Below are positions 62,870 to 63,330 of a stretch of 64,000 bases of DNA, in pieces (the first letter of the stretch is position 1; each line of letters opens with the position of its first letter). The stretch is taken from the sequence record PV682947.1, one strand, 5' to 3'. The position numbers and the translations under genes were made by a program. The notes under the pieces were generated by a model that was not told the origin of the DNA, did no database searches, and saw only the letters and a list, made by a program, of their open reading frames with translations. The stretch is from Escherichia phage WPEC4.

Positions 62870-63330
62870 GTTAAAATCGATCAACAACCAACAACAAACC
62901 ATCAAAAACACTGTTTTCCTTACTTTCTAGTGCAATGATAACCATTATCATCTACCCTTGCGTATCTATTCAATATAAGTGCATAACTATAATGTTGATA
63001 ATAGTTCGCAACAACAAACTAACCAACAACCTAAAACAATAAGCAAACTAATCATAATCAAAGAAATAATAGCAAGATGATTGATAACGACAAACAATCT
63101 AACCATGATAAATAGTAAGCAAGATAACGATAACACTACAAAACAACCAACTAACGAACAATAACAAACGAAATGATTAAAATAATAACTATTGCCATAA
63201 TAGTGACTGAATGAAATCATTACAAAACGAATCATTCCCAGGATCATCATTAGCACGCTATGCCGGACACATAGCGAGCTAATAATAAGCCAACTACACC
63301 CCAACAATCATAACCATCGGTGATGGTTAT
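62870..63330. repeat. Strand-asymmetric A+C-rich low-complexity tract, non-coding
   Basis: Top strand is dominated by CAA/ACA/ATAA words with very few G or T; the only ORF is a hydrophobic artefact on the opposite strand. Confidence 0.6.

Follow-up and report, generated by a model that had tools for sequence, protein, structure and literature searches.

What is the function of a gene-free stretch of several hundred nucleotides whose two strands differ strongly in composition? The question is raised by Escherichia phage WPEC4, in a 64,000-nt stretch of which (sequence record PV682947.1; hereafter, the window) an earlier note, made from the letters alone, had singled out positions 62870–63330 as a tract of about 450 bp with an extreme A+C bias of the top strand and no coding potential, which could mark a replication origin, a packaging or terminus region, or encode an unstructured RNA. 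From comparisons with related phages, we conclude that this tract is the non-coding, strand-skewed arm of the terminal control region of Stephanstirmvirinae, lying between an operator-like module and a folded element of 168 nt (hereafter, the fold).

With regard to location, the interval 62690–64000 matches the end of the record of Escherichia phage WPEC6 (PV763039.1, 155,327 bp; Phapecoctavirus) at 100% identity and, when reversed, the start of the WPEC1 and WPEC2 records, also at 100%, and ~70 Phapecoctavirus genomes match it at 90–96% identity. Position 64000 corresponds to the final base of the WPEC6 record, the BI-EHEC record and, within one base, the Schickermooser record stop there, and the Mt1B1_P17 record starts there. 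The last 328 bp (63673–64000; strands are given below only for features to which one was assigned) are themselves identical (100%) to bases 1–328 of WPEC6. In relatives, for which terminal repeats were taken from PhageTerm or from author statements, the repeat measures 328 bp in Schickermooser (Korf et al., PMC6563267) and 342 bp in BME3, where it was determined by PhageTerm (PMC12210895), and the phi92 record is annotated with a right terminal repeat of 343 bp. Because an exact repeat stands at both ends, record ends are shared and repeats are reported in relatives, these sequences identify 63673–64000 as a direct terminal repeat and 64000 as the right physical end of the genome. The suggestion of a packaging or terminus region was therefore well placed, the tract lying close to the 328-bp repeat at the physical right end, with its start ~800 bp and its end ~343 bp inward of the repeat. 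It sits within ~1.3 kb of gene-free DNA at the right end, ~1 kb of gene-free DNA preceding the repeat. This gene-free terminal region starts at an intrinsic terminator (62701–62725, plus strand; stem AGGGCGC/GCGCCCT followed by TTCTTTTTG) that belongs to the last right-end gene (62302–62685) and is kept in all relatives. In records deposited as collapsed circles (e.g., tuntematon), the last right-end and first left-end genes lie on the same strand, 1.6 kb apart, with no annotated genes between them; ~1 kb of this gap precedes the repeat, and the tract falls inside that 1 kb.

The compositional bias is real, lies where it had been reported, and is the strongest in the window: per 200-nt window over the 64 kb, A+C averages 0.498 (standard deviation 0.044) and reaches its maximum, 0.73, at 63009, which is ~5 standard deviations above the mean, the second-highest value being 0.665 at 51815. 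The description of a strand built almost only from A and C was however overstated, since G and T together still make up a quarter to a third of the bases and C is ordinary. Over 62870–63330, the composition is A 0.445, C 0.215, G 0.111, and T 0.230 (A+C = 66%), and over the core at 62990–63200, it is A 0.531, C 0.180, G 0.095, and T 0.194, such that C stays at the genome average (0.18–0.21 vs. 0.196) and the anomaly consists of an excess of A with deficits of G and T (GC skew −0.36, AT skew +0.50). Moreover, what had been taken as a single tract is a 461-bp composite of several distinct parts. A first short A+C run, rich in CAA (CAACAACCAACAACAAACCATCAAAAACAC; 62870–62909; A 0.56, C 0.27) and forming a weak array of period 11, is followed by a segment without A+C richness (62910–62990) that carries a conserved palindrome and a TGCATAAC-TATAAT box, then by the non-coding core tract itself (62995–63243), delimited by its composition and 95.5% identical within the genus, whose A-rich, G-poor top strand amounts to a T/G-rich, C-poor bottom strand; the 3′ end of the interval (63244–63330) is the first half of the separate fold. 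Among the reiterated words that had been pointed out, CAACAA (7 occurrences vs. 0.78 expected from composition) and ATAACGA (2 vs. 0.09) are indeed in excess, but CATAATC occurs once, which is not significant. No true tandem or satellite array was found, Tandem Repeats Finder giving only two weak arrays (1.9–2.7 copies, scores 33 and 39). Two dispersed imperfect repeats of 33 and 38 nt, 107–132 nt apart in the tract region, suggest from their sequence an old duplication of ~130 nt. Separately, the region around 63188–63210 is polymorphic for a tandem duplication of 18 nt (CTATTGCC.TAATAGTGA, a small hairpin), which TSP7_1, EcG1, Wec188, and L026 carry and this window lacks.

What, then, is conserved in this tract? 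Between genera, its counterpart of 300–400 nt cannot be aligned with the window sequence. Across six diverged lineages (Phapecoctavirus, the phiWec group, the phi92-likes, Citrobacter Tr1, Klebsiella FKP3/KP2025, and metagenomic lineages), top-strand G nevertheless accounts for only 3–13% of each 100-nt window over 300–400 nt in all six, and this G-poor stretch of ~300 nt always lies between the operator-like module and the fold. A and T vary freely among these counterparts, and total GC ranges from 0.2 up to the genome average of 0.39–0.40 in L030 and L035; an AT-rich unwinding segment is thus not kept, GC being 0.28–0.30 here and rising to that average while G depletion persists. These comparisons indicate that the conserved property is the near absence of G from the top strand (C>>G), and neither the A+C words nor AT-richness. 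When a one-strand property outlives full sequence turnover, either a role in single-stranded form (RNA or single-stranded DNA, ssDNA) or a lasting strand-specific mutation pressure is suggested, and a simple unwinding element becomes less plausible. In 4 of the 6 lineages, the words AAC (GTT on the bottom strand) and TAAC also exceed what composition predicts. With regard to mutation pressure, the C lost from the bottom strand in L030-type lineages is not replaced by T, unlike what simple deamination predicts. As for a host or plasmid origin, no match was found in 28 Gb of E. coli genomes, 7.3 Gb of plasmids, and the GTDB contigs.

Next to the tract stands the fold, a multi-helix element of 168 nt (63244–63411; probably minus strand, see below) delineated by covariation, a covariance model, and folding energies. 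RNAalifold and pair counts over 28 distinct sequences put 98.3% of the 1232 cells in pairs and detect compensatory change in 15 of the 44 pairs, when none of 500 shuffles reaches the observed pairing and sliding the partners lowers it to 23–50%. The covariance model retrieves exactly one copy in the window and one per related locus, with 145–194 bits, and none in unrelated loci; the folding z-score of the element is −8.0 on the plus strand and −10.0 on the minus strand. Its architecture comprises a P1 hairpin (63256–62/63270–76) with a nearly invariant CCGGACA loop, a long-range P2 helix of 15 bp (63278–92/63391–405) whose arms are ~100–120 nt apart, a P3 hairpin (63310–18/63322–30) whose sequence differs wholly between lineages with pairing retained, and P4 (63347–54/63358–65), an invariant 19-bp perfect palindrome (GCTTGCAAnnnTTGCAAGC) that pairs alongside P5 (63366–70/63384–88). 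An alternative to P4 and P5 also exists in the form of a helix (63351–57/63382–88) that uses the P4 "loop," the bases of which covary with the downstream segment (T-A/A-T/G-C at columns 115/164); judging from these covariations, the alternative helix could compete with the palindrome hairpin and confer a switch-like behavior. Two further pairings were rejected: P3 with its T-run (63310–63340) as an intrinsic terminator, because other lineages lack the T-run and the pairing of P2 requires bases located past it, and a pseudoknot-like pairing of 63331–44 with 63438–51, because it is not retained in the phiWec lineage (alignment read by eye).

This element is conserved in Phapecoctavirus, phiWec-type and phi92-type phages, Citrobacter Tr1, Klebsiella FKP3/KP2025, and metagenomic relatives, and is absent from the E. 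coli genomes, plasmids, and bacterial genome contigs searched; for more distant members, a second DNA pattern and a separate search with the neighboring protein returned only chance matches or loci without the fold. A scan with Rfam 15 gave no match at E ≤ 1 in window positions 58000–64000 or in five related loci, and tRNA and tmRNA are absent from the tract and fold region. The fold is thus an element without match to any Rfam family, found inside terminal control DNA. From where the compensatory changes fall, the covarying helices belong to 63244–63411 and not to the tract, the top strand of which has no RNA structure beyond its composition (−0.07 kcal/nt, z = −0.55). The unstructured RNA that the earlier note had envisaged is therefore acceptable for the top strand on composition alone, but the pairing of the adjoining fold points to the other strand.

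Which strand, then, does the work? Mismatches in the helices are nearly all A·C on the top strand, that is, G·U or G·T wobbles on the bottom strand. Such A·C cells number 16 in the first model and 29 with the alternative helix, in which case standard pairs make up 99.8% of cells on the bottom strand versus 97.1% on the top strand. Counted as separate changes, ~9–10 A·C stand against one G·T on the top strand (two-sided p 0.01–0.07, depending on how events are counted). In P3, a C·A wobble is the majority state in phi92-likes and is flanked by relatives with C-G and T-A, as would be expected of a tolerated intermediate between the two, which it resembles. The minus strand also yields lower consensus and single-sequence energies, in 24 of 24 sequences. 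Finally, plus-strand genes have a positive GC skew on that strand, meaning that sense strands are G>C in this genome, and for this reason the C>>G top strand of the tract looks antisense. Because the mismatches tolerated are nearly all bottom-strand wobbles and sense strands are G>C, we lean to the bottom strand as the working strand, be it as RNA or as ssDNA.

On this basis, the reading that we tentatively put first, as one possibility among several, is that the tract and the fold form a leftward non-coding transcript, with the fold first and then the tract as a C-poor, G+U-rich RNA. Transcription would proceed from the terminus side inward, the folded domain being the upstream part and the tract the downstream 300 nt. 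Being C-poor, this untranslated RNA would be unable to make strong hairpins competing with the fold. Rho loads on C-rich RNA; a C-poor RNA would therefore be a poor Rho substrate and might be read through though untranslated. Part of the skew may also be the C to T mutational footprint (deamination) of the bottom strand as an exposed non-template strand. Such an RNA could serve replication priming, the control of end processing, or host take-over. A primer acting through an R-loop was set aside, its U-richness implying a weak hybrid and its purine content not being conserved, as inferred from composition.

Several observations weigh against a leftward transcript. No sigma-70-type promoter or terminator shared between genera was found for it, conservation in the region is lowest in the DNA on the right side of the fold, and the unit would oppose the direction of all flanking genes. 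At ~2.7% of cells, wobble pairs are scarcer than is usual for a structured RNA; about ten sequence changes carry the whole strand test; and one top-strand G·U, found in P5 in the Phapecoctavirus lineage, goes in the opposite direction if P5 rather than the alternative helix forms. In addition, the invariant 19-bp palindrome and the reiterated ATTAGCA boxes described below look like protein-binding DNA, and the within-genus identity of about 95% in the tract says little on selection either way, the repeat standing at 97% and the neighboring segments being similar. Literature searches returned nothing on transcripts of these phages.

Another possible reading, about which we are slightly more doubtful, is that the bottom strand works as ssDNA, with the fold signaling priming or assembly on the lagging-strand template as forks move inward from near the right end, the tract serving as an adjoining hairpin-free stretch lacking C (partly depleted through deamination during frequent single-stranded exposure), and the ATTAGCA boxes serving as initiator sites. 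The hairpin signals of phages G4 and phiX174 and ssiA/ssiB of RSF1010 would be the comparators for such a fold. This scenario shares the bottom-strand pairing and energy evidence with the leftward transcript, needs no promoter or terminator, none having been found, and accommodates the scarcity of wobbles, which fits DNA, where G·T is only weakly tolerated. It also draws on the AAC/TAAC enrichment in 4 of the 6 lineages, on the position of the element at a genome end, and on the presence, beside the fold, of the invariant palindrome and of one-strand ATTAGCA boxes. These boxes are found at 63249, 63400, and 63479, with ATTAGCG at 63435 and an inverted copy at 63278, part of them in a variable spacer (63412–63578) that combines ATTAGCA boxes with AT-rich palindromes and retains 86% within-genus identity with many indels. 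ATTAGCA/G thereby occurs 4 times on one strand in 63249–63485, an iteron-like arrangement that recurs in all lineages; three one-strand ATTAGCA boxes are packed within 240 nt, versus 14 in the remaining 63.7 kb, and two of the ATTAGCA/G boxes also contribute the outer ends of helices P1 and P2, the one use excluding the other.

Against the ssDNA scenario, multi-helix folds closed by a 15-bp helix across 100–120 nt are typical of RNA and unusual for ssDNA signals. The skew data do not help it either: over the 64 kb, GC skew tracks gene orientation (changing near 22 kb and again near 58 kb) and has no global inflection at the tract, the only local feature being a change of skew sign at the fold, and neither a mirrored GTT enrichment nor a strong opposite skew was found on the far side of the fold. 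A global origin or terminus defined by skew was accordingly rejected, as was a mirror-symmetric priming zone around the fold, the far side lacking GTT enrichment. The tract would moreover make a poor unwinding element in L030 and L035, where it is not AT-rich. The replication origin proposed in the earlier note thus fails the skew test suggested there, and fits poorly with those lineages in which the tract is not AT-rich.

An unlikely, though not fanciful, alternative sees the region as double-stranded packaging DNA, that is, as a platform for terminase assembly inside the first-packaged end, comparable to lambda cosB or to the T7 pac region at the concatemer junction, in which the tract would be a spacer or flexible segment with an incidental skew. 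The distance from the tract to the terminal repeat is indeed 343 bp, the non-coding DNA is all concentrated on one side of that repeat, and the cluster of repeats that had been noticed at 63520–63700 is genuine: it consists of two GGGGGCGAA-hairpin-ATGTTGAGCAC units (63579–63619 and 63641–63677, plus strand), the terminal repeat starting inside the second. Relatives have 1–3 copies of this unit (one in Schickermooser, two in this window, three in nepoznato), with hairpin sequences differing between copies and phages. The start of the terminal repeat (63672|63673) reads GTTG|AGCAC and the far boundary (WPEC6 328|329) reads GCGTT|AAGCAC, which suggests that the two boundaries share a cutting motif; the window holds 4 copies of GTTRAGCAC, versus 0.9 expected. 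Independently of the role of the tract, the cluster of units is probably the end-forming signal, holding candidate end-cutting or recognition signals. However, packaging DNA leaves unexplained both a strand-specific composition that is kept while AT content floats and compensatory changes in helices whose arms are 100 nt apart. Nor does AA/TT periodicity of 10–11 bp, indicative of bending or wrapping, rise above the 95% level of shuffles in 6 lineages, and intrinsically bent DNA was rejected on this ground.

At the left edge of the tract, the operator-like module (62931–63003), which aligns across all genera, is made of a palindrome A (AATGATAACCATTATCAT) matching 15 of the 19 positions of the Fur-box consensus, the TGCATAAC box with TATAAT, and a degenerate box B. 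What the lineages have in common at this edge is an AT-rich palindrome (ATGATAAYnATTATCAT), a TGCATAA box, and a second palindrome of type AATAATGATAATCATTCT. The enterobacterial Fur-box consensus is GATAATGATAATCATTATC, and palindromes scoring 15–17/19 to it occupy conserved places in each of 10 lineages, some bounding the tract on its left and others lying within the terminal repeat. In the window, these sites are at 62931–62952, 63511–63529, 63744–63765, and 63923–63947 (the last two inside the repeat), and others are seen in L008, L010, L020, L035, and further loci. Of the 10 loci scanned, all but Tr1 have a match of at least 15/19 located 290–380 nt upstream of the fold, and 8 of the 15 matches of at least 14/19 in the 64 kb fall within 62931–63947, in the last 1.07 kb. 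By sequence, these palindromes resemble the Fur boxes that serve iron-regulated promoters in enterobacteria; unlike them, they are located in the terminus of a lytic phage, away from any recognizable promoter. They could be Fur sites or equally sites for a phage protein, and literature searches returned nothing on Fur boxes in lytic phages. In this regard, we consider it quite unlikely, yet worth stating, that the tract and fold constitute an undescribed Stephanstirmvirinae-specific non-coding gene or ssDNA signal of the bottom strand, bracketed by host Fur sites, through which host iron status would set the start of replication or the processing of ends.

The same module enters into an improbable alternative in which the top strand is transcribed rightward from the TGCATAA/Fur-box-like module, as an unstructured, C>G, Rho utilization (rut)-like leader gating transcription into the repeat, somewhat as phiOR transcription operates at the T7 concatemer junction. 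This leader would be co-oriented with all flanking genes, would start after the terminator, and would have an operator-like module at its 5′ edge in all genera aligned. Its composition is rut-like, the top strand having a C/G ratio of 1.6–3.8 and −0.07 to −0.17 kcal/nt over at least 80 nt without a conserved open reading frame, the unpaired parts of the fold are A/C-rich, and the one T·G pair in P5 goes in its favor. Although the top strand is, like rut sites, G-poor with C>G, unstructured, and untranslated over more than 80 nt, the tract is A-rich rather than C-rich in this genus, and the pairing evidence favors the bottom strand, whose RNA is the opposite of rut. A rightward leader would also turn ~9–10 helix changes into disruptive A·C on its own strand, and the energy asymmetry favors the other. 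Finally, the module does not score as a sigma-70 promoter: its TATAAT (62988) has no accompanying −35 and is confined to the genus, which led us to reject a canonical sigma-70 promoter feeding the tract from the left. More generally, no canonical promoter was found for a top-strand transcript, only weak, non-conserved promoter-like sites being present on either strand.

We give equally little credit to the idea that the tract has no function, being a relaxed spacer whose skew is a mutational by-product or a decayed internal duplication. The tract cannot be aligned between genera, bears traces of the old ~130-nt duplication and of the 18-nt duplication polymorphism, and is not conserved above neighboring segments within the genus. 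However, G is depleted on the same strand, over a similar length and between the same landmarks, in at least 6 lineages, the bottom-strand C lost in L030-type lineages was not replaced by T as deamination predicts, and the skew far exceeds that of any other place in the 64 kb.

Last comes the coding question, on which the earlier note's claim of no coding potential is upheld. The sole long open reading frame in the tract (minus strand, 62987–63307, 106 amino acids) is intact in WPEC phages only and carries in-frame stops or frameshifts in 13 of 13 relatives; its variable columns distribute as 18/16/11 over the three codon positions, without third-position bias, and comparison with the 13 relatives led us to reject protein coding on either strand. 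The WPEC records annotate six short "hypothetical proteins" on the minus strand within 62700–63750, and pipeline-annotated records (WPEC, Tr1, FKP3, and PsgM04F) list short hypothetical proteins here, when curated relatives list none, so that the tract is not found inside a conserved gene in relatives; judging from the broken frames, the six WPEC proteins are likely over-calls of gene-calling programs. That 62987–63307 encodes a small hydrophobic protein on the minus strand, as WPEC records annotate and as its intact frame in this phage would allow, is thus so improbable, given the broken frames, the flat codon-position pattern, and the silence of curated annotations, that it can be dismissed.

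How does this region compare with known systems? By analogy, its overall layout appears closest to the T7 concatemer junction, in which the non-coding DNA of the right end bears phiOR, pac signals, and a hairpin-forming inverted repeat beside a 160-bp terminal repeat. Both have a short direct terminal repeat, a gene-free stretch inside the right end with reiterated short motifs and inverted repeats, and co-directional flanking genes. Unlike the T7 junction, with which it has no sequence similarity, the region here spans ~1 kb rather than a few hundred bp, lacks a phage RNA polymerase promoter, and contains the 300-nt skewed tract and the covarying multi-helix element, neither of which is described for T7. 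A looser likeness is with lambda cos (cosQ-cosN-cosB), where reiterated boxes resembling protein sites also lie inside one end, beside the cut site. CosB consists of ~120 bp of double-stranded sites with an IHF bend, and lambda ends are 12-nt cohesive ends; cosB has neither a strand-specific composition nor covarying helices, and the ends here are 328-bp repeats. Origin primer RNAs and ssi signals (ColE1 RNA II, the T4 oriF/oriG R-loop origins, the G4 origin hairpins, and RSF1010 ssiA/ssiB) likewise combine a one-strand fold with a compositionally special stretch and iteron-like boxes nearby, but here no promoter is defined and no skew inflection is seen, a U-rich RNA would make a weak RNA–DNA hybrid, and the fold is much larger than ssi hairpins. 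By these comparisons, membership in the T7-, cos-, origin-, or rut-type classes cannot be claimed, and the region is best described as terminal control DNA of terminal-repeat phages.

Some features around the tract deserve mention. The terminator is followed by a conserved block (62726–62869; …CGCGGTATCGAGCTAATCA…TTAAAATCGAT) with 92% mean identity within the genus, pieces of which are recognizable in phi92, Tr1, and metagenomic lineages. Upstream of the last right-end gene lies a near-consensus sigma-70 promoter (62223–62251, TTGACA-17-TATTAT) and, at 62055–62084, a terminator behind the preceding gene; because of these two signals, the small genes of the right end look like early genes that each have their own promoter and point toward the terminus. 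On the other side of the repeat, outside the window, the left end of WPEC6 (329–613) consists of unique non-coding DNA with its own reiterated boxes, TTGCCATGA and GGGGTGTCRAAATAATC. Elsewhere in the window, 10 tRNA genes are clustered at 274–2199 (Met, Arg, Ser, Asn, Thr, Gly, Gln, Pro, Ile, and Met), and three WPEC genomes (PV659873.1, PV691511.1, and PV763039.1) measure 155–161 kb, that is, 4–10 kb above other Phapecoctavirus records (~150 kb).

From a broader perspective, phages with terminal repeats control packaging, and often replication, from the gene-free DNA beside their genome ends, and to our knowledge such terminal DNA is uncharted outside T7, lambda, and a few other models. The present analysis provides a concrete map of this terminal region in phages of the phAPEC8/phi92 type, a group with applications in phage therapy, and indicates that the automatic annotation of this stretch, which placed six "hypothetical proteins" in the WPEC records, is wrong. 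Should the fold prove to be an RNA, it would represent a new class of phage RNA; should it be a DNA signal instead, it may indicate where replication of this subfamily originates or is primed.

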